NCBI GenBank assembly: GCA_964424775.1
Contig: CAYRJZ010000001.1
Coordinates: 204,748 to 268,747, forward strand
Length of the DNA: 64,000 nucleotides
DNA from: an uncultured Gammaproteobacteria bacterium
Lineage (GTDB): Bacteria > Patescibacteriota > Microgenomatia > Levybacterales > UBA12049
Direction of reading: 5' to 3'
Program-made: the position numbers and the translations under genes
In this document: positions 19,076 through 52,146 of the stretch, one piece after another
How the letters are laid out: each line of letters opens with the position of its first letter
Position numbering within the stretch: position 1 is the stretch's first letter
The notes under the pieces: model-generated
What the model was told of the DNA's origin: nothing
The model's input: the letters and a program-made list of their open reading frames with translations, nothing else
The model's database searches: none

Positions 19076-19578
19076 TGATGAGAGACGACGCAGTATCACA
19101 AAATGACATTCAAGAAAAGGAACAAGTAATGGCGAATGAAAGCGTTGAACCGGAAGAAATTCAGATAAATGAGTGGCAGAATAAATATAAAAGAGCGTTA
19201 GCAGATTATCAGAACCTTGAAAAGCGTGTGCGAGAAGAGAGAGGTGACCTTATTAGGTCGGCAAATAGAGATATTCTCTTGCGATTTTTGCCAATTTTGG
19301 ATACATTACTTATGGCAGAAGCTCATACAAAAGACCAGACACTATCTGTCTGTGTCCAGCAATTTCTCGATACGCTTAAGTCAGAGAATGTGACGAGAAT
19401 AAAAACAGTCGGTGAACAATTTAATCCTGAGATAATGGAAGTTATTACGACAGGACCAGGAAAGGAAGGAGTTGTTATGTCAGAGGTACGATCAGGATTC
19501 CTCTTACATGATAAACTCTTACGACCTGCACAAGTGATTGTGGGGAATGGAGAAAAAGAAATAAAGGAGAAAAATTAA
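19069..19578 (+). CDS. grpE: nucleotide exchange factor GrpE
   Basis: [45 protein letters not shown]. Operon position. Confidence 0.85.
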
Positions 19579-19580
19579 TT

Positions 19581-21470: not shown

Positions 21471-21801
21471 GTTTTCTCCTGAAGAATATAGTCAAGCTCC
21501 TTTAACTTTTTCAGACACGAATGAAGAGTCCATACCTCATCAAAGTGGAAATCCACCTATTCCAGTACAGCCTCGAACAGAGGAAGAGCGCGCTTTAGAC
21601 CTCTATGATGATCAAGGAATTAGAACAAAGTCTCTTCCAGCGTCACGATTGGCTGGACCAGTGAAGTCTGGGGTAAATAGTCTTCCTGATTCATTTTCCC
21701 CTCTTCCTATTCCCGACCCACGAAATAGAAGAACTGAACGTGCACCATGGTGGAGAGGTCCTCGTAAAAAGTCAGTGAAGGGAGTAAGAAATGGCAAGTA
21801 A
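21457..21801 (+). CDS. hypothetical small disordered protein between dnaK and dnaJ
   Basis: 114-aa ORF filling the 320-nt dnaK-dnaJ gap, overlapping both ends. P/S-rich with a basic C-terminal tail. No family. Coding status uncertain. Confidence 0.25.
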
Positions 21802-22678
21802 TGACTATTATCAGATATTAGGTGTTTCTAAATCTGCAACTCAGGATGAAATAAAAAAATCATATCGAAAACTCGCCCTGCAGTATCATCCTGATCGAAA
21901 TAAGACAAAAGAAGGAGAAGAGAAATTTAAAGAAATCACAAAAGCGTATGAAGTTCTGTCCGATCCTCAGAAAAGACAAACGTATGACCAGTTCGGAGCG
22001 AGTGCTTTTGAAGGTGGAGCAGGCACAGGAGCAGGAGGCCCCTTTGGAGGATTTGGCGGACAATCTGGGCGTTATGGACCGTTTTCATATACCTATTCAA
22101 CTGGTGGAGATGGACAGGGGTTTGATTTTGGAGGGTTCTCAGATCCATTTGAAATTTTTGAACAATTTTTCGGAGGTGCATCGCCATTTGGTTCACGTGC
22201 GCGTCGACCCGTCTATTCATTATCGCTTAGCTTTAAAGAAGCTGTTACTGGTGTAGAAAAGGAAGTAAATATTGATGGGAAAAAACAAAAAATAAAAATT
22301 CCCGCTGGAGTGGATACAGGTACTCGTATGAGATTTGGGGAGTTTGATCTCGTTTTTGACGTTGCCAGTGATCCAAAGTACCAGCGTGAAGGCTCAGACG
22401 TTATTACCATTGAAGAAATTACTTTTCCTCAGGCAGTCCTTGGAGACACAATTGAGGTAGAAACAGTAGAAGAAAAAGTATCGATAAAAGTACCGCCTGG
22501 TACGCAGCCTGAAACCCTTATTAGACTCAGAGGAAAAGGTATCCAAAGACTTCAAAGTACGAGTAAAGGTGACCATTATGTTCGAATAAAGGTTGTTATT
22601 CCAAAGACTGTTACGAAAAAACAAAAAGAATTACTTGAGCAATTTGAGAAAGATAACGGTAAAAAAGGCTGGTTCTAA
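21791..22678 (+). CDS. dnaJ: DnaJ-family co-chaperone, class B (CbpA-like, no zinc-finger domain)
   Basis: J domain [36 protein letters not shown]-rich linker and C-terminal substrate-binding domains. No CxxCxGxG repeats anywhere in the 295 aa. Confidence 0.85.
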
Positions 22679-27358: not shown

Positions 27359-30031
27359 ATGCTTGGTAACCTGTTCAACCAACATAAAGAAGAGAAGTTA
27401 GATGCAGCTCCTCAGTCAAATGGAGATGCAACACAGACTGATCCTCAGCAACCACAAGAGCCATCTTCAAGTCCAACTGTAGGATCACGCATGGATCCAA
27501 GTTTTCGACAGAATTTATCAGCCTTATCTCATTTAGACTCTCGTACTACTCAAGTCCTCCATCATGCTCAAGATGAAACGAAGAGAATTAGACAACCTCT
27601 CATTGAACCTGAACAAATATTAATTGGTCTTTTATATGACGAGTCAGTTTTTAAATTGCTAGAACAATTTGATGTAGATGTAGCAAAGCTTGCACAAGAG
27701 CTCCAGACAAAGGAGCAACTCGGAACATTTTCTGGACAGCCAACATTAAGTAATGATACGACATCACTTTTTGAACAAGCATACAGAGAGGCAAAAGGAA
27801 GAGATGCAAGTTTTGTAACTCCTGAAGATGTCTTACTCATTCTATGTAATAGTAATATGGAAGCTGCAAAAAAATTGCAAGAAAAGGGGATATCCAAACA
27901 GGCTGTCTCTGAGAAAATCACGAAAAGTGCTAATTTTTCAAAAGGTGGAAAAAAATCTGTATTAGAACAGTTTGCAATTGATCTTACTGAGGAAGCGCGT
28001 GCAGGCAAACTCGATCCAATTGCTGGTCGAGATAAAGAAACAGAACGACTCATTCATATTCTTCTTAGACGAACAAAAAATAATCCTATCATTATCGGAG
28101 AAGCTGGTGTTGGTAAGACAGCAATAGTGGAAGGTCTCGCATTAAAAATTGTTTCTTCACAAGTGCCTAAAGAGTTAAGTGGACGGAAGATTTTTCAACT
28201 CGATCTGGCTTCTCTTGTTGCAGGCGCGAGTCATAGAGGAGAGTTTGAAGAAAGACTCAAAGGAGTAATTAATGAGGCGATAGCATCTCAGGGTCAGATA
28301 ATTCTATTTATAGATGAGATCCATACCCTTATTGGTGCTGGAGACACTGATGGAGCATTGGATGCGTCAAATATTATTAAACCTCATCTGGCTCGTGGTC
28401 ATATGCAGATAATTGGGACCACAACGACTACAGAGTATCGAAAGCATTTTGAGAAGGATAAAGCTTTTGAGAGAAGATTTCAGCCAATAATAGCTGAAGA
28501 GCCAACTGAAGAAGTTGCTGTCGAAATGTTAAAAGTACTTAAAACTAAGTACGAAAAATTCCATAATGTTACTCTTCCTGATGACACCTTAACAGCAGCT
28601 GTTAAGTTGTCCAAAAAGTATATTGGTGAGCGGTACCTTCCTGATAAGGCAGTTGACCTTCTCGATGAAGCAGCAGCTGAGGTAAAACTTGAGAGTGGCG
28701 GAGGTAAACGACAGGATACACAGGTCGTGAAGAAAGATATTGAAAAGGTTGTTTCTGATTGGACAGGAATTCCAATTACTAAATTAACAGAAGATGAGAG
28801 TCAAAAACTTCTTAATCTTGAAAAGAAAATTCATGACCGACTTATAGATCAAGTAGAGGCAGTGACAGCGGTTGCTGAAGCTGTAAGGAGAGGTCGAATA
28901 GGTCTTGCACCTGCAAATAGACCAATTGCTTCATTTATTTTTCTTGGTCCAACCGGAGTAGGAAAGACAGAACTTGCCAAAACATTAGCAGAAATTTTAT
29001 TTGGCCGTGACGATGCATTAGTTCGACTTGATATGAGTGAGTATATGGAAAAGCATGAAGTGGCTAAATTAATTGGTGCACCTCCTGGGTATGTCGGATA
29101 TGAAGAAGGAGGACAACTTACTGAAGCAGTCCGGGCAAAACCATACTCTATTGTCCTTCTTGATGAAGTTGAAAAGGCCCATCCAGATGTCTTTAATATT
29201 CTCCTTCAGCTTTTGGAAGACGGTCGTCTAACTGATAATAAAGGAAATACAATCTCGTTTAAAAATACGATTGTGATATGTACTTCTAATATAGGAAGCG
29301 CACTTATTCAGCAACAACTGACTGAAAAGGATGATGTTACTCTAACTCAAACAGATGAACAACAAGCGCAGCTCTTTGCAGAACTAACCTCAACTGTTAA
29401 TGGTGAGCTTCGAAAATTCTTCAGACCTGAATTATTAAATAGATTTGATGACGTGGTAATATTTAAGCCTTTAAGACGACAAGACATGTCACAAATTGCA
29501 AAGCTTGGCATTGCTAAAACTGGTAAACTTCTTGAGGAACAAGGATATCATATTCAGACAAGTGACAAAGCACTTGCTCAACTTGCAAAAGAAGGATATG
29601 AACCTGCAAATGGTGCTAGACCATTACGAAGACTTATACAGTCTTCTATTGAAAATCAAATTGCACTTCTTCTTATTAATAAAACGTTCGCACCTGGAGA
29701 TACAATAGTAATCGATTATGATGAGAGTAAGTCTGAATTTGTCTTCAACAAAGGAACAGCACAAGTTGTATCACCTACAGCGGATAATGTATCAGAAAAG
29801 ACAGATTCTTCTCCAGATTCAATGCCTGTTGCAACAAATACACAAGAAGTTACACAACAGCCCTCACAACCGCAAGTCGTATCTGGAGACATGCAAGCAA
29901 ATTCAGCAGTCAATCAGCCACAGACTCAGTTTGCCCCACCGAATTTTAACCCTCCTTTTCTGAAAAAAGAGGATAATAATTCACAAACAACGCCAAATGG
30001 CGTCATCCAAGCCTCAGCTGCTGTCAATTAA
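27359..30031 (+). CDS. clpC: ClpC-type AAA+ chaperone ATPase (two NBDs, Clp N-domain repeats, short linker, Q/P-rich C-terminal tail)
   Basis: Clp_N repeats in aa 60-200. NBD1 Walker [16 protein letters not shown] and Walker [12 protein letters not shown]2 [49 protein letters not shown]. No long ClpB-type middle coiled coil. C-terminal ~90 aa low-complexity. Confidence 0.85.
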
Positions 30032-30404
30032 CTTGTTCTTTCAGGTTAAAGATCCTATACTTTTATATGTAGGAATGTCTGCCTTAATTTCTCTGCCAGT
30101 TTATTTTTTGCGATTTTGGTACTTAGAAGTACCTTCTCGCATGCTTGATTATTTCCTTACTCTCAATCAGGCATTCTTTCAATTATTCTCATTGCCACTT
30201 TTTGTCAGGACATTTTTCCTCCCTCTTAAAAATGAATATAGGAAAGGTCTTGTTGGATTTTCTTTAGGTATGGGAATTGCAGTCAAACTTCTTCTCATAA
30301 TTGTAGATGTCTTATTATTTCTTCTCTTATTACTGCTTGAACTTGTTCTAATTGCAGGATTTATGCTTTTTCCTATACTTACTTTACTTATACTTATATG
30401 GTAG
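29997..30404 (+). CDS. small integral membrane protein, hypothetical
   Basis: 135 aa, 3-4 TM helices. Starts inside the clpC 3' end. Its stop overlaps the next start in an ATGGTAG arrangement. Confidence 0.35.
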   Translation: MASSKPQLLSINLFFQVKDPILLYVGMSALISLPVYFLRFWYLEVPSRMLDYFLTLNQAFFQLFSLPLFVRTFFLPLKNEYRKGLVGFSLGMGIAVKLLLIIVDVLLFLLLLLLELVLIAGFMLFPILTLLILIW

Positions 30405-32803
30405 CTTCACAGAAACAACTTATTTCAATCTACGCAATATACCGTTCTGCGCTCATTCGAACGATACGCTTTTTTCTTTTCATATCTCTGTTATTACTTC
30501 TTGTGTTTACTACAACTCAAGGCGGGGATATACGTATCCCATTATTCTTTTTTAACATTTTCCTTATGACGGAGATCTTTTATCGATATAAAATTTCTCG
30601 TCTCAGACCTGCGAGAAAAGTCTCGGAAATATCTGAGGATGAAGCAGTTGCAGCTTGTACACAGCTCGTTTTATATGCACTCTATTCTGCAAGTTCAGCA
30701 GAAGAGCTCGTCAGACATCTTTTTTCTACTCACCAAGCAAAATTTATGCTAGAGAGATGCGGGCTTTCTCCAGAAGAGCTTCCTCACAGTCAGATTGATG
30801 CAGGAACGCTTCTTCGTTATGCACACAAGCTTGTGAAGAGTGTTGAAGGTGAGTACATAACTACTGCTGACATATTAGCTGCCTACATTATGTATGTTGA
30901 GCCTGAAGCACACTTACTCCTTTCAAAGAAACTTCGTGAAGATGAATTTATGGACATATTAAAGTGGACTCGTTGGAGGTTTCAGCAAGAAGAAAAACCG
31001 CAGAAATTAGAAGTTCATTTTAGCGGAAGCGGTATAGGAGATGGTCTCATCACAGGTTGGACACTTGAAACGAAGAAATACACGCGTGATTTTAGTCTGG
31101 ATGCTCTTCAAAAAAATACGTCAATCTTTGGAAGAGAAAAAGAGTATGATCTTGTTCAGGAAACATTGGCAAAAGCACAAAATAACAATATTCTTCTCAT
31201 AGGGGAACAAGGAGCAGGAAAAGAAGGTCTCATTCGGAAGTTTGCTATTGAAAGTTATATGGGGAAGAGTACTCCACATACGAGACACAAGAAAATTCTT
31301 GAAATTCTTGTAGGGCCACTTATTGCTGGTGCAACAAGTAGAGGAGATCTGGAAACACGACTTCAAGCAATAATAGAAGAAGTTTCTCATTCTGGAAATG
31401 TCATTCTCTATATTCCTGAACTTCAGGATATACTAGGAAGTTCATCTTTTTCGATGGATTTATCAGGTGCTCTTTATCCATATCTTCAGAGTGGTAAATT
31501 CCCAATCATCGCGTCATTGACACCTGGCAACTTTAAAACGTACTTGGAAGGAAAGCCACTTGCTCAATTATTTACGCAGATTTCTTTAACAGAGCCTAAA
31601 GAGGAGTCTGCCCTTCGTATGTTAATGGAAGTAAGTCGAGACATTGAGCAGGAGTCTCATGTAGCCATAACATATCGTGCAATCTCCAGTGCTGTATCAC
31701 TTGGAAATAGATATATGCAGGATATGCAACTTCCAGGAAGCGCAGTGCGCCTTCTCCAAGATACTGTAGTAAGGGTGCAACAAACACCTGCGGCGCAACA
31801 AACCTATACTAGAAAACGAATAGTAACTGAAGAAGCGGTTGTTAAGACTGTAGAGGATAAAACTCATATTGCTCTTTCTGAGCCGAATGATGAGGAAAAA
31901 CAGTTGTTATTGCATCTTGAAGACACGCTTCATAAAAAAATTATTGGACAGGATGAGGCTATTAAAGTATTAGCTCAAGCGCTTCGAAGACTGAGGTCAG
32001 GGATGGTTGAAAAAACACGTCCTACGTCATTTCTCTTTTTGGGGCCAACTGGAGTTGGAAAAACAGAAACTGCTAAGACACTCTCTGAGATATATTTTGG
32101 TGGTGAACGGGCAATGATCCGACTCGACATGAGTGAATATGCTGATAGTACTGGTGAGAAAAGATTGCTCGGAGCTCCTCCGGGAGAAGGAGAAGAGCGA
32201 GGAGAATTAACGGAGAAAGTTCGGGACAATCCTTATTCTCTTATTCTTCTCGATGAATTTGAAAAAGCTCATCCGCGCATACTGGATCTCTTCCTACAGG
32301 TTTTTGATGACGGAAGACTGACGGATAATAAAGGACGTACTGTTTCTTTTGTAAATACGATAATTATTGCGACATCGAATGCAGGATCATCTTATATAAG
32401 TGAAGAAGTAAGACAGGGGAGACCTCTGGACAGTAAAAAACTTATTGAGTATCTCCAGTCTCAACACCTCTTTAAACCGGAACTCCTTAATAGATTTGAT
32501 GATGTTGTTACCTTTAGGCCGCTTTCTCAAGTTGAAATACAGAAAATCTCAAAATTACTTCTAGAAGAGATGAAAGAGCGGATGAAAGAACGGGATATCC
32601 ATCTGTCGTTTACGGAAGCAGTTATTCAAAAGATAGGAAAAGATGGATTTGATCCTCAGTTTGGTGCTCGTCCAATTAGACGATACATTCAGGATTCAAT
32701 TGAAGATCTTTTGTCACGAAAAATATTAGCAAACGAAATTCAACGAGGAAATACTCTTCATATTGATGTGAAGGAGAATGTATTTGATGTCACAGTTTCT
32801 TAA
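30398..32803 (+). CDS. membrane-anchored Clp/Hsp100-family ATPase paralog with degenerate NBD1 and intact NBD2
   Basis: Two N-terminal TM helices (FFLFISLLLLLVFTT, IPLFFFNIFLMTEIF). NBD1 Walker A GEQGAGKEG (K followed by E, not S/T) and Walker B position ILYIPEL (Asp replaced). NBD2 intact: [45 protein letters not shown], sensor SNAGS, GARPIRR. Confidence 0.7.
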   Translation: MVASQKQLISIYAIYRSALIRTIRFFLFISLLLLLVFTTTQGGDIRIPLFFFNIFLMTEIFYRYKISRLRPARKVSEISEDEAVAACTQLVLYALYSASSAEELVRHLFSTHQAKFMLERCGLSPEELPHSQIDAGTLLRYAHKLVKSVEGEYITTADILAAYIMYVEPEAHLLLSKKLREDEFMDILKWTRWRFQQEEKPQKLEVHFSGSGIGDGLITGWTLETKKYTRDFSLDALQKNTSIFGREKEYDLVQETLAKAQNNNILLIGEQGAGKEGLIRKFAIESYMGKSTPHTRHKKILEILVGPLIAGATSRGDLETRLQAIIEEVSHSGNVILYIPELQDILGSSSFSMDLSGALYPYLQSGKFPIIASLTPGNFKTYLEGKPLAQLFTQISLTEPKEESALRMLMEVSRDIEQESHVAITYRAISSAVSLGNRYMQDMQLPGSAVRLLQDTVVRVQQTPAAQQTYTRKRIVTEEAVVKTVEDKTHIALSEPNDEEKQLLLHLEDTLHKKIIGQDEAIKVLAQALRRLRSGMVEKTRPTSFLFLGPTGVGKTETAKTLSEIYFGGERAMIRLDMSEYADSTGEKRLLGAPPGEGEERGELTEKVRDNPYSLILLDEFEKAHPRILDLFLQVFDDGRLTDNKGRTVSFVNTIIIATSNAGSSYISEEVRQGRPLDSKKLIEYLQSQHLFKPELLNRFDDVVTFRPLSQVEIQKISKLLLEEMKERMKERDIHLSFTEAVIQKIGKDGFDPQFGARPIRRYIQDSIEDLLSRKILANEIQRGNTLHIDVKENVFDVTVS

Positions 32804-32821
32804 TTGATGTAGAGTAAATAT

Positions 32822-33892
32822 ATGATGAGTAAACTACTAAAATATAATCTCCAAAAAGCTCTTTATTCAAAGTTTAAAGGGAATGGCAGCATGTATGTAC
32901 TTTTTATTTTAGGTACTGCAATGGCTGGTGCTTTCGCATTGACTGGTGGTCTTACTCCTCAACTTAATCCCACCCCTAAAGCTTCAGACCAGGTATTAAT
33001 TGATGAAGAGTCAGCGAACAGAAGTTCAGAGAAGTCTCTTCAATTAGTAGATATTCGTATAAAACCTTCTCCTACTCCCACTTTTACACCGACTCCAACT
33101 CGAACACCGACAGTTACCCCAACACCAGTTGCTTGCCTTAACAGGACTGCAATTTTCGTTCTCGCTGATCTTTCTGCATCCATGCAATTTGACAATAAAA
33201 TGGTTGAATTAAGAAGAGCATTACGACTTCTTCGTGACAAGTTACAGCCAGAAACAGGAATTGGACTTTACGCATTTGGATCATATACAGACTTCTCGTA
33301 TGCGAGTAAACGTGGAGTAAGAGAAATTGTCGCGCTTAATAAATATAGAGATAATAAAGATACGTTTGATCCTGCTGTGAACGGGTTAAGTGAAGGCGGT
33401 CTTGGGGGAACGTATATGAGACCTGGTTTTGAGGTGGCAATAGATAGGCTTAATCGAGCTCAGGAAAGAACGTCATACTTTAGGGATTATCAGTACGTTA
33501 CTATTGTATTCTCCGATGGTGTCCCGGAGAGATCAGGAGCGGATAATCTGGCTGATCGTAACCTTGGAGCATGTGCTCCAGGACGTCAAACAACGTCCGG
33601 GTATTATCAAAAATGTTTTGCACAAGAGCTTGATCCACGGACAGATCTCACGACTCAATTGAAGAGTGAAGGAAAAGTTTATTCTGTCGTAGTCTATGAT
33701 ACTCGAGCGGGTGAAGACGACAGTTACTTTGTTTCACCGGTTGATTCAAATGATAGGCTAAGAACACTTATGAAAGCTGTGGCAACTCAACCTTCAGGTT
33801 CATCGAGTACATATTACGATGTTGAAGTACGAGGAGTAAGTAGACTTGCAAATATTTTTGATAGCATTGTTCAAGGTATCTGTACAAATTAA
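32822..33892 (+). CDS. membrane-anchored extracytoplasmic von Willebrand factor A (vWA) domain protein
   Basis: N-terminal TM (MYVLFILGTAMAGAFALTGGL), TPTFTPTPTRTPTVTPTP linker, complete MIDAS (DLSASM = DxSxS, GGTYMRPG Thr, FSDGVPE Asp). Confidence 0.7.
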   Translation: MMSKLLKYNLQKALYSKFKGNGSMYVLFILGTAMAGAFALTGGLTPQLNPTPKASDQVLIDEESANRSSEKSLQLVDIRIKPSPTPTFTPTPTRTPTVTPTPVACLNRTAIFVLADLSASMQFDNKMVELRRALRLLRDKLQPETGIGLYAFGSYTDFSYASKRGVREIVALNKYRDNKDTFDPAVNGLSEGGLGGTYMRPGFEVAIDRLNRAQERTSYFRDYQYVTIVFSDGVPERSGADNLADRNLGACAPGRQTTSGYYQKCFAQELDPRTDLTTQLKSEGKVYSVVVYDTRAGEDDSYFVSPVDSNDRLRTLMKAVATQPSGSSSTYYDVEVRGVSRLANIFDSIVQGICTN

Positions 33893-37526: not shown

Positions 37527-37796
37527 ATGCCGCTTTCAACTACGCAAAAACAAGACATAATAAAGTCATTTCAGACAGCAGACGGAGATACAGGAAGTCC
37601 AGAAGTTCAAATTGCACTTCTTACTCATCGTATTACTCGACTTGCTGAGCATCTCAAAGATCATGCTCATGATGTACATAGTCGACGTGGACTTCTCTCA
37701 ATGATTGCAAAAAGACGTCGACTTCTTAACTTTTTAGTTAAAGTTGATAAGACACGATCCTCAGAGATCAAGAAGAAGATAGGATTGAAAGATTAA
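37527..37796 (+). CDS. rpsO: 30S ribosomal protein S15
   Basis: MPLSTTQKQDIIKSFQTADGDTGSPEVQIALLTHRITRLAEHLKDHAHDVHSRRGLLSMIAKRRRLLNFL. Confidence 0.95.
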   Translation: MPLSTTQKQDIIKSFQTADGDTGSPEVQIALLTHRITRLAEHLKDHAHDVHSRRGLLSMIAKRRRLLNFLVKVDKTRSSEIKKKIGLKD

Positions 37797-40138
37797 TGGA
37801 AAAAACCTCTATATCGGTTGATTTTGCTGGAAAAACAGTTACATTTGAAACAGGCCAATTAGCACCTCAAGCTACGACCTCTATTCTTGCGCGAACTGGT
37901 GACACTATGGTGCTTGTTACTGTTGTTCAAGGACAGGACCGCGAGGATCTTGGCTATTTCCCACTCTCCATTGAATACGTTGAAAGATTGTATGCTGGAG
38001 GGCGAATTAAGGGTTCACGTTGGGTAAAGCGTGAAGGACGCCCGACTGATGAAGCAATTCTCATAGGTCGCCTTATTGATCGATCAGTAAGACCACTCTT
38101 TCCAAAGGAATATAAGAGAGAAGTACAGGTCATGGTTACCGTACTCTCAGTAGATGGCGAGAACGCTCCAGATATTCTCGCTCTTAATGCAGTTTCAGCA
38201 GCACTTACTGCATCCCCAATCCCATGGAATGGTCCTGTTAGTGCAGTTCGAATGGGTTATGTTAAAAATCCAGAGAATGGCTCAGGTGAGTTCATTGCGA
38301 ATCCGACAACAGCTCAAGGAGATACTTCAGAACTAGATATCGTCGTTACTCAATCTCAAGATCTTACTCTCATGATTGAAGCTGGAGCAAATCAGGTTTC
38401 AGAGGAAATTCTTGCTGAGTCAATTAAAAGAGCACATGAGGACACCCGCAAGATGATTGCCGCTATTAATGAATTTGCTGCAAAGGTTGGTCAGCCAAAA
38501 GTTGATGTCCCAAGTAACTCAGCAATGCTTGATATGGCAAAGAAAATTGAGAAAGCTTTTTCAACTGAAATTGCTGAGCTTGCAAAAGCAATGGCAAATA
38601 AAGAGTCAGGTGGAGGAGTTATGGGTGCACTCATTGATAAGGTAGTTGAGAACGAAAAAATGAGTGAAAAGAGTGAAGAAGTTGATAAGAAAGTAGTTGC
38701 AAAAGCTGTTGAGTATGTTCTTTATAAGCACATTCGTCATGCAGCAGTTGCAAAAAAGGAAAGACAAGATGGGCGAAAAGTAGATGAACTTAGGCCTCTT
38801 GGAGCTCGGGTTGGCGTTGTCCCACGTGTTCATGGATCAGCGATTTTTGAAAGAGGTATTACACAGTCATTAACAGTCGCTACTCTTGGATCACCTCGGA
38901 TGGAGCAGCTTATTGAATCTGCAGAAGGTGAAGAATCAAAAAGATACATTCATCACTACTCCATGCCGCCTTATTCAGTTGGAGAAGCAGGACGAGTAGG
39001 TACACCATCACGACGAGAAATTGGACATGGTGCACTTGCTGAACGAGCACTTGAGCCAGTCATTCCGTCTCAAGATAAATTCCCTTATACCATCAGAATG
39101 GTTTCTGAAATTCTTTCATCTAATGGTTCTACCTCAATGGCTGCAACGTGTGCATCAACTCTTGCTCTTATGGATGCTGGAGTTCCAATTTTAAAGCCAG
39201 TCGCTGGAATCTCAATTGGACGAATGTCTGAGGGAGAAAATTCAATTCTTTTAACTGACATTATTGGACTTGAGGATTTTTCAGGAGACATGGACTTTAA
39301 AGTGGCAGGTACTGAAGATGGGGTCACTGCAATTCAACTCGATGTGAAGATCCCGGGACTGAAAGATGAAGAAATTGTTGAAATTTTTGAACGTGCTAAG
39401 ACAGCACGGGCTAAGATCTTGGAAGTTATGCTCTCAGCAATTCCAGAGTCTCGAACACAGGTATCAGAGTATGCACCAAAGATTGAGCAGGTAACTATAC
39501 CTGTTGAAAAAATTGGTGAAGTAATTGGTCCTGGTGGACGAGTTATCAAAAATATCATTGCTACAACTGGTGCAACAGTTGATGTTGAAGATGATGGTAC
39601 AGTCACTATCTCAGGTACAACAGAAGAGTCAGTACAACAAGCTGTGGATTGGGTCAAAGGCCTTACACGGGAAGTGTTAGCTGGAGAGCTTTTTGAAGGA
39701 CCTGTTAAAAGAATTCTTCCATTCGGAGCTTTTGTTGAGATTTTACCTGGAAAAGAAGGAATGGTCCATGTTTCAAAGATGGGACAGGGATTTGTAAATA
39801 GTCCAGAAGATGTTGTTGCAATTGGTGACATTGTGAAAGTAAAAGTAAGTGAGATTGATGATCAGGGTCGAATTAACTTAACAATGAAGCTTGATGATAG
39901 TGGAGAAGATACAAATTCAGGACCGAGAGATGACTCAGGACCACGCAGAGGTGGAAATGAAGGATTTAGACGTGAGCCACGCGGTGAACGACGAGATTTT
40001 CGACCACGAGGAAATGATCGGGGAAATGATCGGGATCGAGGAATCGCTCCACGAAGCAAACACCCACTCGCACAGCAATTTGAAAGAGAACGTCGAAGTA
40101 CTGATCGAAATAATCCAAGAAGAAAGACTCACTATTAA
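37796..40138 (+). CDS. pnp: polyribonucleotide nucleotidyltransferase (PNPase) with RG/RD-rich C-terminal extension
   Basis: Two RNase PH domains, KH and S1 (GELFEGPVKRILPFGAFVEILPGKEGMVHVSKM). ~80-aa tail GPRRGGNEGFRREPRGERRDFRPRGNDRGNDRDRG... Confidence 0.95.
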   Translation: MEKTSISVDFAGKTVTFETGQLAPQATTSILARTGDTMVLVTVVQGQDREDLGYFPLSIEYVERLYAGGRIKGSRWVKREGRPTDEAILIGRLIDRSVRPLFPKEYKREVQVMVTVLSVDGENAPDILALNAVSAALTASPIPWNGPVSAVRMGYVKNPENGSGEFIANPTTAQGDTSELDIVVTQSQDLTLMIEAGANQVSEEILAESIKRAHEDTRKMIAAINEFAAKVGQPKVDVPSNSAMLDMAKKIEKAFSTEIAELAKAMANKESGGGVMGALIDKVVENEKMSEKSEEVDKKVVAKAVEYVLYKHIRHAAVAKKERQDGRKVDELRPLGARVGVVPRVHGSAIFERGITQSLTVATLGSPRMEQLIESAEGEESKRYIHHYSMPPYSVGEAGRVGTPSRREIGHGALAERALEPVIPSQDKFPYTIRMVSEILSSNGSTSMAATCASTLALMDAGVPILKPVAGISIGRMSEGENSILLTDIIGLEDFSGDMDFKVAGTEDGVTAIQLDVKIPGLKDEEIVEIFERAKTARAKILEVMLSAIPESRTQVSEYAPKIEQVTIPVEKIGEVIGPGGRVIKNIIATTGATVDVEDDGTVTISGTTEESVQQAVDWVKGLTREVLAGELFEGPVKRILPFGAFVEILPGKEGMVHVSKMGQGFVNSPEDVVAIGDIVKVKVSEIDDQGRINLTMKLDDSGEDTNSGPRDDSGPRRGGNEGFRREPRGERRDFRPRGNDRGNDRDRGIAPRSKHPLAQQFERERRSTDRNNPRRKTHY

Positions 40139-40184: not shown

Positions 40185-41339
40185 ATGGTTGACGCTGCCC
40201 TCCCTACTACTCCTCCAGTGAATGGAAAAGGAGCTCAAACTCCTTCTTCTCCTTCCTTTATGACACCAACAGGAAAAGGAGAATCAAATGATCAGATCAG
40301 AAAATTGGGAGAAAGAATAGAAAAAGCTGAACTCCCTGATGTTCTTAAACAAAATCTTCTTGAACGTGTTTCACGCCTTGCACTTCTTCGAGCAAGTTCC
40401 GGGTTTATGAGCGCAAATTATATTCTTGAGTATGAGAACACATCGAATTATATCAATTGGGTAGTTGGACTTCCTTGGCATATGAACACCCAGGATGTGC
40501 TTGATTTAGTAAAAGCGAAGGAAATAATGGACAAACATCATTATGGGCTCGATGTTATAAAGAATAGAATTCTTGATTATCTAGCAACAATTATTTTAAA
40601 TATGAAACAACAACGACATGATTTAGTTACACGAGCTCCTATTTTATGCCTTGTAGGTCTGGCTGGAACTGGTAAAACGACGCTTGCTTCATCTATTGCT
40701 GAAGCACTGGGGAAAAAATTTGAACGTATACCATTTGGAGGAATGGCAGATTCGCGTGCTCTGCGTGGACAATCAAAAGCATTTCCAGATGCAGAGCCTG
40801 GATTTGTTGCTAAAAAATTATTTCATGCAAAATCAAATAACCCGGTTATTCTGCTTGACGAGTTAGATCGTGTCACAGAGTCTGCTCGAGCTGATATTAT
40901 GGGAGTTCTCGTTGAGCTTTTGGATCCTGAGCAGAACTTTGCGTTTACTGATCACTATATTGATTATCCTTTCAATTTATCTAATGTTCTGTTTATTGCT
41001 ACTGCAAATAACACAAGCAGCATCTCAACTGCTGTTCTCGATCGTCTTGAGATCATTCAGATGCCATCTTATACCGATGAGGAGAAAATTGTCATTGCTA
41101 AGCAATATTTGTTCAATCAAATCAGATCAGAAGCAGGGTTAAGTGATCAAAATTTAATTATAGATGAAGCAGTTTGGCCTGGAGTCATTCGACCCTTGGG
41201 CTTTGATTCAGGGATTCGATCACTTGAACGAACGATTCAGGGTATTTGTCGAAAGGTTGCTAGACAAATAGTTGAAGGAAAAGTCACAGCTGTGCGCATT
41301 ACAGATACTAATCTTAAGGAGTATCTCCCACAGTGGTAA
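40185..41339 (+). CDS. Lon-like AAA+ ATPase module lacking N-domain and S16 peptidase domain
   Basis: Colinear with the Lon region from the helical bundle through the AAA+ alpha-subdomain: YINWVVGLPWHMNTQDVLDLVKAKEIMDKHHYGLDVIKNRILDYLA; ILCLVGLAGTGKTTLASSIAEALGKKFERIPFGGMADSRALRGQSKAFPDAEPGF; VILLDELDRV; VLVELLDPEQNFAFTDHYIDYPFNLSNVLFIATAN; LDRLEIIQMPSYTDEEK. Stops at TAA 41337-9 exactly where the protease domain would begin. RNase J begins 57 nt later. Confidence 0.8.
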   Translation: MVDAALPTTPPVNGKGAQTPSSPSFMTPTGKGESNDQIRKLGERIEKAELPDVLKQNLLERVSRLALLRASSGFMSANYILEYENTSNYINWVVGLPWHMNTQDVLDLVKAKEIMDKHHYGLDVIKNRILDYLATIILNMKQQRHDLVTRAPILCLVGLAGTGKTTLASSIAEALGKKFERIPFGGMADSRALRGQSKAFPDAEPGFVAKKLFHAKSNNPVILLDELDRVTESARADIMGVLVELLDPEQNFAFTDHYIDYPFNLSNVLFIATANNTSSISTAVLDRLEIIQMPSYTDEEKIVIAKQYLFNQIRSEAGLSDQNLIIDEAVWPGVIRPLGFDSGIRSLERTIQGICRKVARQIVEGKVTAVRITDTNLKEYLPQW

Positions 41340-41396
41340 ATGTAATCTATTAGATTGAATTAACAAGATGAATCCCTTATACTGAACAAACAATTT

Positions 41397-43097
41397 ATGG
41401 AAGAGAAAAAGATAAAAAATCCCCCACATAGAAATCCACATATGCCATCACTTTCACTTATACCTTTAGGTGGAATGGAAGATGTCACCAAGAACATGTA
41501 TGTCTATGAGTATAAAGATGAAATACTCATCGTTGATTGTGGCATCGGATTTGCTGATGCTTCAATGCTTGGGGTAGATCTTTTACTTCCTGATATTACG
41601 TATCTGTTGCAGACTAAGAAAAAAATTGTAGGAATGATTCTTAGTCATGGCCATGAAGATCATATTGGAGCAGTTCCTTATATTCTTCCTCAACTCCCAC
41701 CTCAATTACCTGTCTATGCTTCCCCTTTTACTGCAGCGTTAACGAACGAAAAACTCAAGGAGTTTAAGATGCCTGCCAGTGTAAAGACTTTCTCATTTGG
41801 TGATCGTCCACTTACACTTGGACATTTTACGGTTAACTTACTTCGCATAACTCATTCAGTTCCAGATAGCGCAAATATTGTCATTAAGACTCCGGCAGGT
41901 GTCTTTTATCATGGAAGTGATTTCAAAATTGATTTAACTCCACATGACAAAGAGCGTATGGACTTTCAAGGTATTGTGAAAGTAGGAAATGAAGGAGTAT
42001 TAGCTATGTTGACTGATTCGTTAGGATCAGACAGGCCAGGTCATACTCCCTCAGAAGATGGGTTGCAACAGGCGTTTGAGAATGTGTTACAGCATTGTAA
42101 AGGAAAATTAATTATCACAACGTACTCATCAAATGTTGCTCGTATTAACCAAGTCATTGCTGCAGCAGAACGCTTTAAGCGAAGAGTATGTTTTGTTGGT
42201 CGCTCTCTTATAAAAGTTGCAGATGTAGCAAAGAGAGCAGGGTATTTAGAAGTACAAGATGGGACAATTATTGAGCTTGAACATGTTTCTAATCTTCCAG
42301 ATAACCAAGTTGTGATGATAGTAGCGGGAAGTCAAGGGCAAGAAAATTCGGCCTTGACTCGTATAGCAGAAGGAGAACATCGAGAAGTTCATTTGACACC
42401 AGATGACATTGTCATATTTTCAGCAGATCCGATTCCGGGCAATGAAGAGCCTGTCAATCAATTAATCGATACAATTGCTAAAACTGGCGCAAGCGTTATT
42501 ACGTCAGGTCATGGAACTTTATATCATGTGTCAGGACATGGATCTCAACAGGATCATTTGATGATGATGTCTCTTATCAAACCTCGCTTTATTACTCCAA
42601 TTAGTGGAAATTATAAGCACCTTCTGGGATATCAGAAGCTTGCTATTAAGATGGGTTATAAAGCAAAAGATGTTCTTCTCCTTGAAAATGGTCAAGAAGT
42701 TATCTTCAGCAAAGATGGTGTGACTTTTGGGAGGAAGATTCCCACCAAGAACGTGTATGTGGATCAAGTTTCCGGTGAAGAAGTAGAAGGATTTGTATTG
42801 AGAGATAGAGAGAAGTTAGCAAAAGACGGAATAGTTATTTTAATGATTGAAATAAATGCATCTGATGGTCAGCTTACAGGTAAGCCAGATATTATAGAAA
42901 GAGGGTTTCTCCCTAAAGAAGGGGAAGTACTCGAAGGAACACTCATGAAGGAAATAAAAGGTGTTTTATCTACTAAGAAAGGGAGAGTAACGAACTGGGT
43001 ACATCTTCGTAAACAACTTGAGGCTGTAGCTAGTAAGCATATCTTTAAAAAGTTCAGACGTCGCCCACTTGTTCTTCCTGTTATTATAGAAGTATAA
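41397..43097 (+). CDS. rnj: ribonuclease J (metallo-beta-lactamase / beta-CASP family)
   Basis: ILSHGHEDHIGAVPYI HxHxDH motif. beta-CASP region and C-terminal domain. 566 aa. Confidence 0.85.
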   Translation: MEEKKIKNPPHRNPHMPSLSLIPLGGMEDVTKNMYVYEYKDEILIVDCGIGFADASMLGVDLLLPDITYLLQTKKKIVGMILSHGHEDHIGAVPYILPQLPPQLPVYASPFTAALTNEKLKEFKMPASVKTFSFGDRPLTLGHFTVNLLRITHSVPDSANIVIKTPAGVFYHGSDFKIDLTPHDKERMDFQGIVKVGNEGVLAMLTDSLGSDRPGHTPSEDGLQQAFENVLQHCKGKLIITTYSSNVARINQVIAAAERFKRRVCFVGRSLIKVADVAKRAGYLEVQDGTIIELEHVSNLPDNQVVMIVAGSQGQENSALTRIAEGEHREVHLTPDDIVIFSADPIPGNEEPVNQLIDTIAKTGASVITSGHGTLYHVSGHGSQQDHLMMMSLIKPRFITPISGNYKHLLGYQKLAIKMGYKAKDVLLLENGQEVIFSKDGVTFGRKIPTKNVYVDQVSGEEVEGFVLRDREKLAKDGIVILMIEINASDGQLTGKPDIIERGFLPKEGEVLEGTLMKEIKGVLSTKKGRVTNWVHLRKQLEAVASKHIFKKFRRRPLVLPVIIEV

Positions 43098-49072: not shown

Positions 49073-49801
49073 TTATTCATTTGATACCATTCGTGTTTTT
49101 AAGATAAGTCTTTTCCATGTTGTCCCCGGCGGAGTACAGGTAACAATAGTTAAATAATTATCATCATAGTTTTGAGCGAAAAATGATGTGTCTGATGGAT
49201 CTGTAATTGATATTTCAAAAATTTTATATGTATACCGTACTCCCTCTACAGTTAATTCAATAGTATCATTGATTTGTAAGGTATGGAGGTTGGCAAATAT
49301 CGTTTTGTAATCATTTGCTTTATAGAGTTGCGGTAGTGTTGAGTGACCAAAAACAACTGCATTTCCTTTATTCGGAGGGACAGCTGTTCCTCCATAATGA
49401 ACAAGATGAGAAGATAAATTATTGTCTGTCGTCGAAACAATTGCATTTGTTATAGATAGTTTTGGAATACTCAGTTGGTATGCTGTAACGGCTGGTGTTG
49501 CTTTTGCCTGCTGGAAAGATGGGAACCAATTTTGCGCATTTGAATAATCGATTCCACTTAATGAGTGGGTAGCTTGTTGAATTAAACTCTTTATCGAAAC
49601 TTCATTCAGAACAGTTGAGTGTGGAATAGGAGCAGTGACATCATCAGCTGCAAAAGCAGGTCTGAGGTAGAGTTGAAATGAGATAAGTGGAAATGAAAAA
49701 TATGTCACTGCCAAGAGTCCACCTGCAAAGAGAAACAAGCCCAGTGCTTTTACTGAACGTCTTTTAAATTGTGTATTACTCTTTGTATAAACTTTTTTCA
49801 T
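49073..49801 (-). CDS. sortase-family transpeptidase
   Basis: N-terminal TM. AVVFGHSTLPQL and catalytic TIVTCTPPG (TLxTC Cys motif). Conserved Arg region near C-terminus. Confidence 0.7.
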   Translation of the reverse strand: MKKVYTKSNTQFKRRSVKALGLFLFAGGLLAVTYFSFPLISFQLYLRPAFAADDVTAPIPHSTVLNEVSIKSLIQQATHSLSGIDYSNAQNWFPSFQQAKATPAVTAYQLSIPKLSITNAIVSTTDNNLSSHLVHYGGTAVPPNKGNAVVFGHSTLPQLYKANDYKTIFANLHTLQINDTIELTVEGVRYTYKIFEISITDPSDTSFFAQNYDDNYLTIVTCTPPGTTWKRLILKTRMVSNE

Positions 49802-52146
49802 TATGTATTAAGTGTTACCGTTATATTCTTTTTTATTCGTGGGAGAAATTTAGGCAGAAGAGGTATGTTTGGTGATAATTGAATTTCTGATGTTTTAACT
49901 TGCGGTAGTGAATTTAAGTATTCAGTTGCATTCACTTCAGATTTACCTGTTATTTCTGAAATAATGTCATCATTTTGAATCTTTGGAAGAAGACCTCCTT
50001 TCATACTAAGAGTAGCTGTAGCCTCATCTTTTTCGACTTCAATATCTCTCAACTCTGTTTGAGTATCTTTGTCAGAAAGAGATAAGTCATCAGTTGATTC
50101 TTCCTTGAGAAGAGTTTGTGCGAGGTCTTTTACATCTTTTGTACTATACGCAAGTGTGGTAAAGAGTACTGTTGCTTTCAATGTAACTTGTTTTGCCTCC
50201 TCATTGATATCTTTATCAAAATTTTTCTTTGTTAATGTAATATCAATAAATTCACTAAGCGCTTCTTCATCACTTCCAAGTTTTTCCCTGAGCGCTTCTT
50301 TTGCTTTTTCTTCAAGAGATTCTGGTAAATCCTCAGATAATGCATCGGCATCTTTTTTAGAAAAAACGGTGACTTCTTTCTTAGATCCTCCAGAAAAAGC
50401 AGATTCGTTTCGTGCAGCAACTCCTGACAGACCATTAAAATCGAATTCTGTTTTGGAAGGGAGGTTGTATTCATTTCCAATTTGTTTAGCTGTAACTGCA
50501 ACTTGAGCTGTCCCAGACTTAATGCCAGAGAAGATATCTCCAGAAGCAGATGCAATAGCCACTTCTTTATCTGTTATAAATTCTCGATTATTTTTTGAAG
50601 TAAGTGTTGATCCTGCTGGGATGACTTTTCGTGCGGAGGACTGATTATAAACAGTTACAGTCCCTTTCGCCTTTTCTCCAATTTCTTTTTTTCCAGTAAC
50701 ATTTATGGTCGCACTTCCTTCAAGTTGAACTTCAACTTCTTTTGCTCCCAGAATTCGTTCACTAAAATTGTTTCCTGAGTTAAGTGCAAGAGTAATTGTC
50801 TCTTCTCTTTCAATATCTTTTGGTTCAAGTGTCAAGACGACATTCGCTTTGACATTGAGTACATAGAGAAGAATGAGAGCTATGAGTCCGATAAGGACAG
50901 CGGGAATGAAAAGTGTTAACTTTCCTTTTGGAAGAGGAAGGGTACTAAACGACATTCCTTTTGGTATAAAACGGCTAAGTGATGAGAAAGCCCCAAGGAG
51001 TGCGTTCAAAGGAGAAGATTTTCCAGCTTGTTCTTCATCATCATTATGATTTCGATTGTTGGAATGGGATGTAAAATCAGGAGCTGTGAGATTGTCTGAT
51101 TGAGCTGCATTAATAGTAAAAGATGGAGGTTCTTCATTTGTGTGAACATAAGGAGGGGTTTTGACAGTGGTTACATCTTTCCCTAGAACAAATCCAAAAT
51201 CATCCGCTTCAGTTTCTTCAACTTTTGATTCTTTTTTCTTATCTTCTTCTTGTGTCTCATCACTTATTTTTTCTTCAATTGCATCCTCTTCATTGTTATG
51301 TACTTCTTTTTTATGATGGGATCCTTTTTCATGAGCTTTTTCTTCCTGATGATCAAGGTCAGTAATTTTCAAATCGTCAAAGATATGAGTTGCGCTCAGC
51401 CCCATTTGATCTGCTGCCCCATATACCATGGCTTTTCCATCAAATCCGTTTGGTAAGACCGAAATCTGCGGTACATGAAGAAAAGGGATGCTTTTACTAA
51501 AGTGATGCGCTATAAACTCTTGTGCCAGATTTTCATTAGGTGTGTCATTAAGAAGGACGATTCGAGAGGGTAAGACATCAACGGTAAAGTGATGGAGGAG
51601 TTTATCAACCATTTGAGTGACAGAGCCTGTGATTTCAGAAGAATTACTCTCAAGTATTTTACCCGCTCTAAAAAGTGAGAGTGAAACATGTGTCGGTGTT
51701 ATATCTGCGAGTACTGCGGAAAGTGGGGCGCCTTCTTCTTTTTGAATTAGGTGAGAGATTGCCTCAGATATGACCATAAATCCAATTGGCTTGAGAGACA
51801 ATTCATCACAAATTCTTTTTAATTTAGATAAGTATTCTTTTTTTATTTTTTTATCTTCAACCCATGATTCTTTAACCCCAAATACGGTACTTTCTGTCTC
51901 AACTGAAGGGGGAAGTGTCTCTTCTGCGCGACTTATCGTTTTATCAAGAACAGTAAGTAATTCCTCATAGGCGAAATCTTCGAGAGGGGAGGTCAGAGCT
52001 TCTTCGTGTCGTCCAATTACTTTAATAGCTCCTTGTACTTCTTCTATAATAATTGCAACAGCTTTTTCGTCACGAAGAAGAAGCGCTAAATAATGCACTG
52101 AAGAACTATTCTTTTTCTGTAGGAGGCTAGGGATAGGCAGTTTCAT
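49801..52146 (-). CDS. bitopic protein: cytoplasmic FtsA/PilM/GspL-like actin-fold domain (no ATP-binding motifs) + acidic linker + TM + ~370-aa extracytoplasmic domain
   Basis: N-terminal LALLLRDEKAVAIIIEEVQGAIKVIGRHEE aligns by eye with the FtsA/PilM N-terminus (LVVGLEIGTAKVAALVGEV...) but without the DxG phosphate motifs. His/Glu/Lys-rich linker. Single TM LFIPAVLIGLIALILLYVL. Unrecognised beta-rich ectodomain. Confidence 0.45.
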   Translation of the reverse strand: MKLPIPSLLQKKNSSSVHYLALLLRDEKAVAIIIEEVQGAIKVIGRHEEALTSPLEDFAYEELLTVLDKTISRAEETLPPSVETESTVFGVKESWVEDKKIKKEYLSKLKRICDELSLKPIGFMVISEAISHLIQKEEGAPLSAVLADITPTHVSLSLFRAGKILESNSSEITGSVTQMVDKLLHHFTVDVLPSRIVLLNDTPNENLAQEFIAHHFSKSIPFLHVPQISVLPNGFDGKAMVYGAADQMGLSATHIFDDLKITDLDHQEEKAHEKGSHHKKEVHNNEEDAIEEKISDETQEEDKKKESKVEETEADDFGFVLGKDVTTVKTPPYVHTNEEPPSFTINAAQSDNLTAPDFTSHSNNRNHNDDEEQAGKSSPLNALLGAFSSLSRFIPKGMSFSTLPLPKGKLTLFIPAVLIGLIALILLYVLNVKANVVLTLEPKDIEREETITLALNSGNNFSERILGAKEVEVQLEGSATINVTGKKEIGEKAKGTVTVYNQSSARKVIPAGSTLTSKNNREFITDKEVAIASASGDIFSGIKSGTAQVAVTAKQIGNEYNLPSKTEFDFNGLSGVAARNESAFSGGSKKEVTVFSKKDADALSEDLPESLEEKAKEALREKLGSDEEALSEFIDITLTKKNFDKDINEEAKQVTLKATVLFTTLAYSTKDVKDLAQTLLKEESTDDLSLSDKDTQTELRDIEVEKDEATATLSMKGGLLPKIQNDDIISEITGKSEVNATEYLNSLPQVKTSEIQLSPNIPLLPKFLPRIKKNITVTLNT

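Follow-up and report, generated by a model that had tools for sequence, protein, structure and literature searches.

A conserved LonA-derived AAA+ ATPase lacking the peptidase domain in Patescibacteria

The lon' locus and the domain content of its product

The gene analyzed here, which we call lon', lies on the + strand of a 64,000-nucleotide stretch of DNA (positions 204,748 to 268,747 of contig CAYRJZ010000001.1, assembly GCA_964424775.1; this whole stretch is referred to as the window) and encodes a protease-less Lon-type AAA+ ATPase of 384 amino acids. Its open reading frame (ORF) runs from an ATG to a TAA and is flanked by pnp upstream and by rnj, the gene for RNase J, downstream; the pnp stop codon (40138) is separated from the lon' start by 46 nt, and the lon' stop codon from the rnj ATG (41397) by 57 nt. 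Both the clean TAA and the 57-nt spacer had been pointed out in a first reading of the locus (hereafter, the original prediction), and both were found as described. The start codon is backed by the N-terminal tip of the protein, M-x-D-x-A-[LQ]-P, which is conserved in the homologues. UGA is recoded in some candidate-phyla lineages; as the stop codon of lon' is TAA and not TGA, such recoding is no issue for the 3' end of the gene. The positions of all features are given in Table 1. What was observed directly concerns the domain content of the protein, its conservation, the purifying selection acting on it, the states of its motifs and the fact that neither the protein itself nor its vicinity contains a peptidase.

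In Pfam, the protein matches AAA (residues 154–292) and Lon_lid (316–366), and neither Lon_C nor LON_substr_bdg was found in it. The match to the family model TIGR00763 (lon) is restricted to model positions 250–569 of 795 and reaches 324.5 bits, against a cutoff of 608.05, while the score for NF008053 is 250.5, against a cutoff of 891. The best PDB sequence matches are all LonA proteins: residues 35–381 align to chain residues 7–338 of Bacillus subtilis Lon (3M6A) and to residues 248–583 of 7P6U, and residues 36–381 align to chain residues 9–339 of 6N2I, the Escherichia coli "Lon AAA+ domain" construct. The protein is colinear with LonA from about residue 248 to 586 only, a segment made up of a bundle of three helices followed by the AAA+ core and its lid, and the TAA falls inside the linker leading to the S16 peptidase in LonA. 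In the LonA of M. taiwanensis (MtaLonA), the protease-domain linker comprises residues 584–589 (PMC8503904). As stated in the original prediction, this is a Lon-derived AAA+ module ending exactly at the domain boundary. The lack of the N-domain was borne out as well, with no LON_substr_bdg and a LonA match that begins at ~248.

The AlphaFold2 model of the protein (predicted local distance difference test, pLDDT, 81; predicted template modeling score, pTM, 0.72) is composed of a disordered tail (residues 1–32), three helices (31–95), an alpha/beta AAA+ core and a helical lid. The helices of the bundle (31–47, 52–72 and 77–95) belong to what has been defined in LonA as the HI(CC) domain (PMC6722904). 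When compared by Foldseek, the model matched the AAA+ modules of LonA and LONP1, with a template modeling (TM) score of 0.7–0.8 for the LonA fold; the 6N2I construct was covered almost whole, with a TM score of 0.87 normalized to the target. Across the family described below, the N-terminal tail varies in length from 25 to 320 amino acids, is of low complexity and rich in Q, P, S and T (such extensions are present in the members P0123, P0136, P0146 and P0080, for example), and its tip may also take the form MD..AQ.

Table 1. Features of the lon' locus, with positions in the window. Fractions are counts among the 139 aligned family members.
Feature	Position	Strand	Basis
Complete protease-less Lon-type AAA+ gene, 384 aa + TAA	40185..41339	+	ORF, Pfam, homologue start tip
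N-terminal tail, residues 1–32, disordered, P/S/T/Q-rich, conserved tip	40185..40280	+	AlphaFold2 pLDDT <50
Three-helix bundle, residues 31–95, C-terminal part of LonA HI(CC), E. coli helices alpha8–alpha10	40275..40469	+	AlphaFold2, LonA alignment ~248–310
AAA+ large alpha/beta (nucleotide-binding, NB) subdomain, residues ~108–295	40506..41069	+	Pfam AAA 154–292, model, Foldseek
Walker A GLAGTGKTT (158–166); K164 and T165 139/139; LonA, GPPGVGKTS	40656..40682	+	Alignment
Pore-loop 1 RGQSKAFPDAEPG (194–206); LonA, RGHRRTY[VI]GAMPG; F200 at the LonA Tyr position	40764..40802	+	Alignment
Walker B ILLDELD (222–228); D225 and E226 139/139	40848..40868	+	Alignment
Pore-loop 2 TESARADIMG (231–240); Ala234 replaces the LonA aromatic (MtaLonA Trp431); RGDP changed to RADI	40875..40904	+	Alignment
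D-P-E, pre-sensor-1 hairpin base loop; D247 139/139; trans-ATP-interacting group of LonA	40923..40931	+	Alignment, PMC8503904
Sensor-1 Asn275, 139/139	41007..41009	+	Alignment
Arg finger Arg287 (LDRLE), 139/139; counterpart of MtaLonA Arg484	41043..41045	+	Alignment, PMC8503904
AAA+ small (lid) subdomain, residues 296–384	41070..41336	+	Pfam Lon_lid 316–366, alignment
Sensor-2 Arg345, 139/139; counterpart of MtaLonA Arg541	41217..41219	+	Alignment, PMC8503904
Conserved C-terminus Y-L-P-Q-W, then TAA; aligns with LonA "YLG" entering the protease-domain linker	41322..41339	+	Alignment
Spacer lon'–rnj, 57 nt, too short for any domain	41340..41396	.	ORF map, terminator scan
Upstream neighbors rpsO and pnp; synteny lineage-specific, functional link not implied	37527..40138	+	Synteny comparison
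Downstream neighbor rnj (RNase J); synteny lineage-specific	41397..43097	+	Synteny comparison

A conserved family without an S16 peptidase

The comparison with orthologues in related genomes, which had been proposed as a check, was carried out, and the same architecture and stop position recur. More than 130 homologues, with 46–98% identity and from Levy-, Gottesman-, Woyke- and Dojkabacteria, end at the same boundary. In a search of 5.8 billion protein clusters, the best 120 clusters (clustered at 90% identity; 68–98% identity to lon') are 320–451 amino acids long, with a median of 380, and carry AAA and Lon_lid only. Their public names are "AAA family ATPase" in NCBI (Candidatus Levybacteria, Patescibacteria group) and "ATP-dependent Lon protease" in IMG. 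Approximately 25 further, divergent short clusters were found with HMMER in a library clustered at 50% identity; these end 0–8 residues past the lid and include Dojkabacteria. The window protein itself had no record in the assembly index. Among species-representative genomes, at 12 Patescibacteria-type loci with 46–80% identity (L001, L004 and L007–L016; contig titles include Gottesmanbacteria, Woykebacteria, Levyibacteriota and Microgenomates), the ORF ends 0 or −1 residues past the match, while all the examined loci of other phyla, with at most 43% identity, carry a Lon ORF of ~800–880 amino acids with a peptidase. The C-terminal motif [FY]-L-P-x-W followed by the stop is common to the window protein, its close family and the distant L015 and L016, and the position of the stop is therefore ancestral.

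A neighbor-joining tree of 186 Lon-type AAA+ modules placed 35 of the 38 short forms, together with P0155 and P0161, in one clade, with no canonical LonA inside it. The three short forms outside the clade (P0250, P0262 and P0142) look like truncated ordinary or tandem Lons and were not accepted as family members. The C-terminal extensions of P0155 and P0161 were considered as possible remnants of a peptidase and proved to be low-complexity, S/N-rich tails instead. Two apparent intermediates were also discarded. P0188, which seemed to combine AAA+ and S16 without an N-domain, is a LonA broken by sequencing errors, with a separate LON_substr_bdg ORF just upstream, and P0175 is a frameshifted LonA. 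On the contig of P0188 (L089; ENA ERZ25039490 contig_16561), most genes, dnaK, groEL, htrA, lon and pnp among them, are split, as is typical of uncorrected long-read indels, an artefact that calls for caution when short Lon variants are mined.

The conservation of lon' bears directly on the suggestion that it is a degraded Lon or a product of the assembly, be it a truncation, a stop codon created by a sequencing error or the remnant of a LonA pseudogene. A single stop codon exactly where the protease domain should begin is what such an event could leave behind. This reading has next to no chance of being right, and the observations refute it. More than 130 homologues in many assemblies share the stop, and independent assemblies from ENA, JGI, NCBI and Logan show the identical stop position and C-terminal motif. 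Against a relative with 98% identity, lon' has 92 synonymous and nine non-synonymous differences, corresponding to a ratio of non-synonymous to synonymous substitution rates (dN/dS) of 0.022, comparable to the 0.014–0.048 of the neighboring nusA, infB, rpsO, pnp, rnj and ftsK. At the more distant loci compared, the protein identity of lon' is in most cases at least that of PNPase, RNase J and IF2. The catalytic residues are present in 139 of the 139 aligned members, and no remnant of S16 was seen in any frame. The gene represents a strongly conserved family of the candidate phyla radiation and is neither truncated nor decaying.

The statement that no peptidase fragments are visible in other frames also held: neither phmmer (--max) nor motif regular expressions recovered an S16 fragment in any of the six frames of the entire 64-kb window. 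The probe was the E. coli Lon P-domain, run against six-frame ORFs of at least 40 amino acids; as positive controls, it detected 13 of 13 full-length Lon loci, with E values of 1e-61 to 1e-73. No peptidase domain was found by Pfam in 31 of the large ORFs of the window, and genes for ClpP, FtsH, HslV and HtrA were likewise not found in the 64 kb. The probe detected no S16 in the 12 relatives, in flanks of up to 10 kb fetched on each side, nor did Lon_C/S16 appear among the Pfam calls at the loci of four more relatives (L087, L088, L091 and L092). The absence near the gene holds even where the gene order differs. A simple split gene with an adjacent peptidase, the other outcome that had been envisaged, is therefore refuted by the lack of S16 in the window and at all of these 16 loci.

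A more elaborate form of this idea is a split Lon in which the ATPase ring docks in trans on an S16 ring encoded elsewhere, in the manner of ClpX–ClpP or HslU–HslV. Such an arrangement would fit a protein that ends precisely in the protease-domain linker, whose C-terminal [FY]-L-P-x-W could be a docking element and whose ATPase residues are all intact, and the S16 searches covered the window and the flanks rather than whole genomes. Nevertheless, S16 was absent from all of the regions searched, whatever their gene order, and the reviews consulted make no mention of a Lon that is split in nature; the 2022 classification of the family places the ATPase and protease domains of all Lons in one chain (PMC9569914). 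The pore loops described in the next section speak against it too, since a protease feeder should retain its paddles. Here, the pore-1 aromatic is dispensable, the aromatic-hydrophobic-Gly sequence has become x-P-D and the pore-2 aromatic is lost, while in MtaLonA Tyr397 and Trp431 are both required for degradation (PMC8503904). The Y-T-R-E motif of the lid is rewritten as well. Taken together, we consider a split Lon unlikely.

Two observations on the relatives' contigs concern the quality of the public records. In L015 (Candidatus Woykebacteria MHCR01000001.1, 10700–11319), the 3' end of the short Lon is tandemly duplicated: about 100 amino acids, beginning with MDRLEVIFMPRYTDD and reaching the C-terminus, are encoded two times, each copy in another frame, on a contig that contains runs of N, and the duplication is either an assembly artefact or recent. 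Contigs L007, L008, L009, L013 and L016, which derive from metagenome-assembled genomes, are titled "uncultured Gammaproteobacteria," "Pseudomonadales" or "Lysobacterales" despite having the Patescibacteria gene order nusA-infB-rpsO-pnp-lon'-rnj-ftsK, and the public taxonomy labels of such contigs are probably wrong.

Motor residues, pore loops and candidate function

To compare the motifs, an alignment of 139 family members with 76 canonical LonA modules was used. The ATPase motifs reported in the original prediction (Walker A and B, N275 and R287) are present, as is sensor-2 R345, and the positions given in Table 1 for these motifs are invariant in the family. The base of the pre-sensor-1 hairpin reads L-D-P-E-Q-N (246–251). 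The ATP of a subunit in MtaLonA is acted on in trans by the neighboring subunit, through its D-P-E loop and its Arg finger, Arg484 (PMC8503904). The invariance of these trans-acting elements in the family points to an oligomeric ring with shared active sites.

The segments that grip the substrate in LonA are changed. In pore-loop 1, the HRRTY[VI]GAMPG of LonA is replaced by QS[KR]A-x-PDAEPG, with family-specific acidic residues at D202 (133 of 139) and E204 (137 of 139), followed by P205-G206 (138 of 139). The pore-1 Tyr is found in 76 of the 76 canonical modules; the same position in the family is occupied by F in 102 members, Y in 13, L in nine and by Q, E, S, N, M and others in the rest of the 139, and is then followed by P-D. 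It is F or Y in the close family, being Phe in the Levybacteria-type lineage, and among the 18 most divergent members the aromatic (F) is kept in only four, with Q, E, S, N, R, H or D in the others. In pore-loop 2, the position of the LonA aromatic holds A in 90 members, S in 30 and L in six. The lid differs too: the Y-T-R-E of LonA corresponds to L-G-[FY]-D in the family (L-G-F-D at 338–341 in the window protein), and residue 331 is Trp in 138 of 139 members, versus Leu or Ile in LonA. As read from this alignment, the motor and ring residues are preserved, and the pore is still under selection, with its chemistry shifted from basic, aromatic and hydrophobic to acidic.

These changes affect the suggestion that the protein is a Lon-derived, ATP-dependent unfoldase or chaperone without proteolytic activity. 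The part concerning a Lon-derived ATPase without a protease stood. A classical threading unfoldase is doubtful, because the two pore loops with which Lon grips its substrates have both been rewritten and the aromatic of pore-loop 1 varies across the family; GYVG-type pore-1 loops have been described in all AAA+ proteases and in the ClpB/Hsp104 chaperones (PMC6722904).

In the interpretation we favor as probable, the lon' product is a functional stand-alone AAA+ ATPase derived from LonA, a ring-forming remodeler or chaperone without a peptidase of its own and with a changed substrate chemistry. The N-domain and S16 would have been lost in an ancestor of the Microgenomatia-type and Dojkabacteria-type Patescibacteria, leaving a protein in which three helices from the end of HI(CC), the nucleotide-binding domain and the lid are kept. 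Most likely, the product would form a ring similar to that of Lon, probably hexameric and with subunits contributing jointly to the active sites, and the ring would hydrolyze ATP; both proposals are based on the invariant trans-acting residues and on the helical packing of 6N2I. An acidic P-D-A-E-P-G loop, whose own aromatic is dispensable, has taken the place of the basic, aromatic and hydrophobic paddles of Lon, and the second pore-loop aromatic is gone. The central pore still matters, because the pore loops are strongly conserved within the family. The ring may thus act by remodeling or as a chaperone, and not by degradation, on clients that would be changed and probably narrower in range; in place of generic hydrophobic chains in the unfolded state, these could plausibly be segments that are basic, or non-canonical or specific in some other way. 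Partners or clients may be tethered by the disordered tail and its conserved tip.

Several points weigh against this interpretation. Phe is kept at the pore-1 position in most members, and polypeptide threading is possible in the Levybacteria-type lineage. The N-terminal region and the protease ring of LonA both help to hold the hexamer together, and the equivalent E. coli fragment has been seen only as an open helical crystal packing (PMC6722904), so that a closed ring would go one step beyond the available structure. The activity as a remodeler is a prediction, and its clients and partners are candidates only. Finally, the tree that unites the family is a rough distance tree, and the absence of S16 is one from the window and the flanks; an S16 peptidase or another peptidase ring may be encoded elsewhere in these genomes.

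When compared with known systems, lon' is closest to LonA, sharing ~35–43% of its residues with it across the AAA+ NB domain, the lid and the three final helices of HI(CC), and with Walker A/B, the pre-sensor-1 D-P-E, sensor-1, the trans Arg finger, sensor-2 and the Lon lid all in place. It differs from LonA in lacking the S16 peptidase domain with its Ser-Lys dyad, the LON_substr_bdg N-domain and the long coiled-coil helix, in retaining only part of HI(CC), in its non-canonical pore loops and in a score below the TIGR00763 cutoff. The gene descends from the LonA AAA+ module, yet fails the defining tests of the Lon protease family. The protein's pre-sensor-1 beta-hairpin with D-P-E and the alpha/beta core with a helical lid are shared with the HCLR clade of AAA+ proteins, the group of the HslU, ClpX, Lon and RuvB types. 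The E. coli fragment Lon(235-584), a product of limited proteolysis, binds ADP, and its crystal packing is an open hexamer of helical form (6N2I; PMC6722904). Its boundaries are almost identical, and the lon' protein is its natural counterpart; the former, however, was produced in the laboratory from a protease whose pore loops are canonical, whereas the latter is natural, under selection, and has a disordered tail and rewritten loops. LonC, for example that of M. taiwanensis, keeps an active S16, while its AAA-like module is ATPase-dead, and a chaperone-like role has been reported for it (PMC3391209, PMC13069640). As in the lon' family, one of two catalytic activities was lost and the protein retained, but LonC is the mirror image of this family, which has intact Walker motifs and no S16.

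Other AAA+ proteins are more distant from lon'. LonB, of the archaeal or Bacillus membrane type, has a transmembrane insertion in the AAA+ module in addition to S16; lon' has no S16, and it aligns to the LonA AAA+ module in one uninterrupted stretch (a program dedicated to predicting transmembrane segments was not run). Unlike the Hsp100/ClpB proteins, which combine two AAA+ modules with an M-domain, Clp_N and a ClpB_D2-small domain, lon' has a single AAA+ module, and the ClpA and ClpB models gave only weak, partial matches. A role in anti-phage defense was also considered and set aside, as the best PADLOC match was DolB with 38.9 bits, the others were generic P-loop matches and the context consists of housekeeping genes. 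Protease-type AAA+ rings that serve remodeling rather than degradation offer the closest functional parallel. The yeast mitochondrial ClpX (Mcx1) has no ClpP partner and is an AAA+ unfoldase acting without a peptidase, and proteolytically inactive Lon/Pim1, which still carries the peptidase domain, acts as an assembly chaperone. Both differ from lon' in their canonical aromatic pore loops and, with the exception of Pim1, they come from unrelated lineages.

Our searches also recovered a group of tandem-AAA Lons (P0121, P0124–P0130, P0132–P0135, P0137, P0138, P0140, P0141 and others), which are 890–1700 amino acids long and combine two or three AAA+/Lon_lid modules with a single Lon_C and no LonA N-domain. 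P0121 is named Candidatus Dependentiae, and the context of P0128 is one of ordinary bacterial housekeeping genes. The pore loops and Walker motifs differ between the modules, some of which are degenerate, and some modules group beside the short family in the neighbor-joining tree. They differ from the short family in their Lon_C end and in heterogeneous pore loops without the P-D-A-E-P-G signature. No description of such tandem-AAA, or "stacked-ring," Lons was found in the open-license literature. The same literature yielded no description of a protease-less Lon, which is weak negative evidence, and no family-specific NCBIfam or PADLOC model was found, Pfam seeing only a generic AAA and Lon_lid.

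The family is a natural exception to the view of Lon as a single ATPase–protease chain, and it is widespread in Microgenomatia-type and Dojkabacteria-type Patescibacteria. If our interpretation holds, it would be a natural experiment in which the ATP-dependent remodeling of Lon was separated from proteolysis, and in which the motor of an AAA+ protease survived the exchange of its "universal" aromatic paddles for an acidic loop, making the rules that relate pore loops to substrates testable. There are consequences for annotation as well: the IMG label wrongly credits reduced genomes with a Lon protease, and the NCBI label hides the Lon ancestry. Should these organisms be truly without an S16 peptidase, their protein quality control would differ from the textbook bacterial set.

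Genomic surroundings of lon'

The window is a typical Patescibacteria housekeeping stretch. Its gene order is hrcA-grpE-dnaK-dnaJ, a 1419-aa ORF, a ClpB/C-type Hsp100, a second Hsp100-like protein, a von Willebrand factor A (VWA) protein, nusA, a short infB, a 302-aa ORF, rpsO, pnp, lon', rnj, ftsK and a RodZ-like helix-turn-helix protein, with alaS, rpoB, rpoC, rpsG and ndk farther along. No terminator-like site was found on the + strand between pnp, lon' and rnj, and co-transcription of the three is plausible for this reason; in the promoter and terminator scan as a whole, site counts were no higher than in shuffled sequence and are thus non-significant.

The original prediction placed lon' in a conserved RNA-metabolism row, rpsO-pnp-lon'-rnj. 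This is correct for the Levybacteria-type relatives and does not extend to the whole family. The order rpsO-pnp-lon'-rnj is retained in 10 compared relatives, down to 53% identity, and relatives down to that identity also keep ftsK after rnj; the adjacency is broken by insertions of 1.7–4 kb in L008, L010, L012 and L013. The Woykebacteria-type L015 and L016 lack the row and have greA and a Pro-rich membrane protein upstream; it is also absent from Dojkabacteria L087, where the lon' homologue lies between histidine kinases, and from the divergent L088, which has alaS and a UDG gene as neighbors. Across the family, lon' has no constant partner at its side, and the row is a lineage-specific synteny rather than a property of the family.

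This arrangement raises the question of an accessory role in RNA decay, in which the ATPase would work with PNPase and RNase J, either remodeling ribonucleoproteins or gripping the Arg-rich tail of PNPase through its acidic pore loop. The short spacers of 46 and 57 nt, the lack of a terminator-like site between the genes and the order kept in the 10 relatives are consistent with such a role, as are the acidic loop itself and the disordered, Arg-rich tail of PNPase with its conserved end. The insertions mentioned above and the loss of adjacency in L015, L016, L087 and L088 (with greA, histidine kinases or alaS as neighbors) argue against it; nusA-infB-rpsO-pnp ... ftsK is a conserved housekeeping block, so the synteny may reflect shared ancestry only, and an acidic pore speaks against the threading of RNA itself. 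We give this explanation little credence. A related, bolder proposal is that of a non-degradative remodeler whose acidic pore, with six copies of D202 and E204, would engage basic disordered tails (the Arg-rich C-terminus of PNPase, or ribosomal or nucleoid proteins), so that, in bacteria of the candidate phyla radiation, a derivative of Lon would regulate RNA decay or the ribonucleoprotein machinery. This is a long shot; if true, it would be the first natural case of a Lon motor that, without a peptidase, was put to a new use with the electrostatics of its pore inverted.

The tail in question comprises the C-terminal ~80 amino acids of PNPase (39890–40138 of the gene at 37796–40138), is disordered and Arg-rich and has the conserved end HPLAQQFERERR..RRKTHY. 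It is present in the Levybacteria-type relatives L001, L004, L007, L008, L010, L091 and L092, and is shorter but still basic in L011 and L012. The tail could bind RNA or a partner, and connecting it with the acidic pore of the ATPase encoded next door is speculation.

A proteostasis cluster, hrcA-grpE-dnaK-dnaJ, is located at 18338–22678 (DnaJ is short, with 295 amino acids) and, together with the gene of the ClpB/C-type Hsp100, lies 10–22 kb upstream of lon'. The ClpB/C-type Hsp100, which carries Clp_N, is encoded at 27359–30031. The second Hsp100-like protein (801 aa; gene at 30398–32803) has an intact D2 and a barely recognizable D1, and the gene directly after it encodes a VWA-domain protein of 356 amino acids; the two genes span 30398–33892. 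This pair is kept in L091, L092, L001 and L007 and recalls the MoxR–VWA systems, but with a ClpB-type ATPase.

With this cluster in view, lon' might instead encode a nucleotide switch that does no threading, or a protein serving another AAA+ machine (the two Hsp100-type proteins 8–13 kb upstream, or FtsH) as its adaptor or regulator; ATP binding and hydrolysis would then control assembly and not mechanical work on a client. The loss of the aromatic paddles in divergent members and the presence of the cluster with its ClpB/C-type and second Hsp100-like proteins would suit this explanation. On the other hand, few segments of the family are as conserved as the pore loops (D202, E204 and P205-G206 in 133–138 of 139 members), which is unexpected for a pore without a role, and the Hsp100 genes are not adjacent to lon' in the divergent members. 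We regard a switch or adaptor as improbable.

Three other features of the window were noted. The 1419-aa ORF between dnaJ and the ClpB/C-type gene (23060–27319) has no Pfam match at an E value of 1e-6. At 7080–9386, a class I lysyl-tRNA synthetase (tRNA-synt_1f) of 768 amino acids has a C-terminal B3_4 domain of the PheRS beta type, an unusual architecture. On the − strand, at 49073–52146, a sortase gene adjoins that of a protein of 781 amino acids, which matches Baseplate_J/GlxA beta-barrel weakly, and this pair is kept in all the Levybacteria-type relatives examined.

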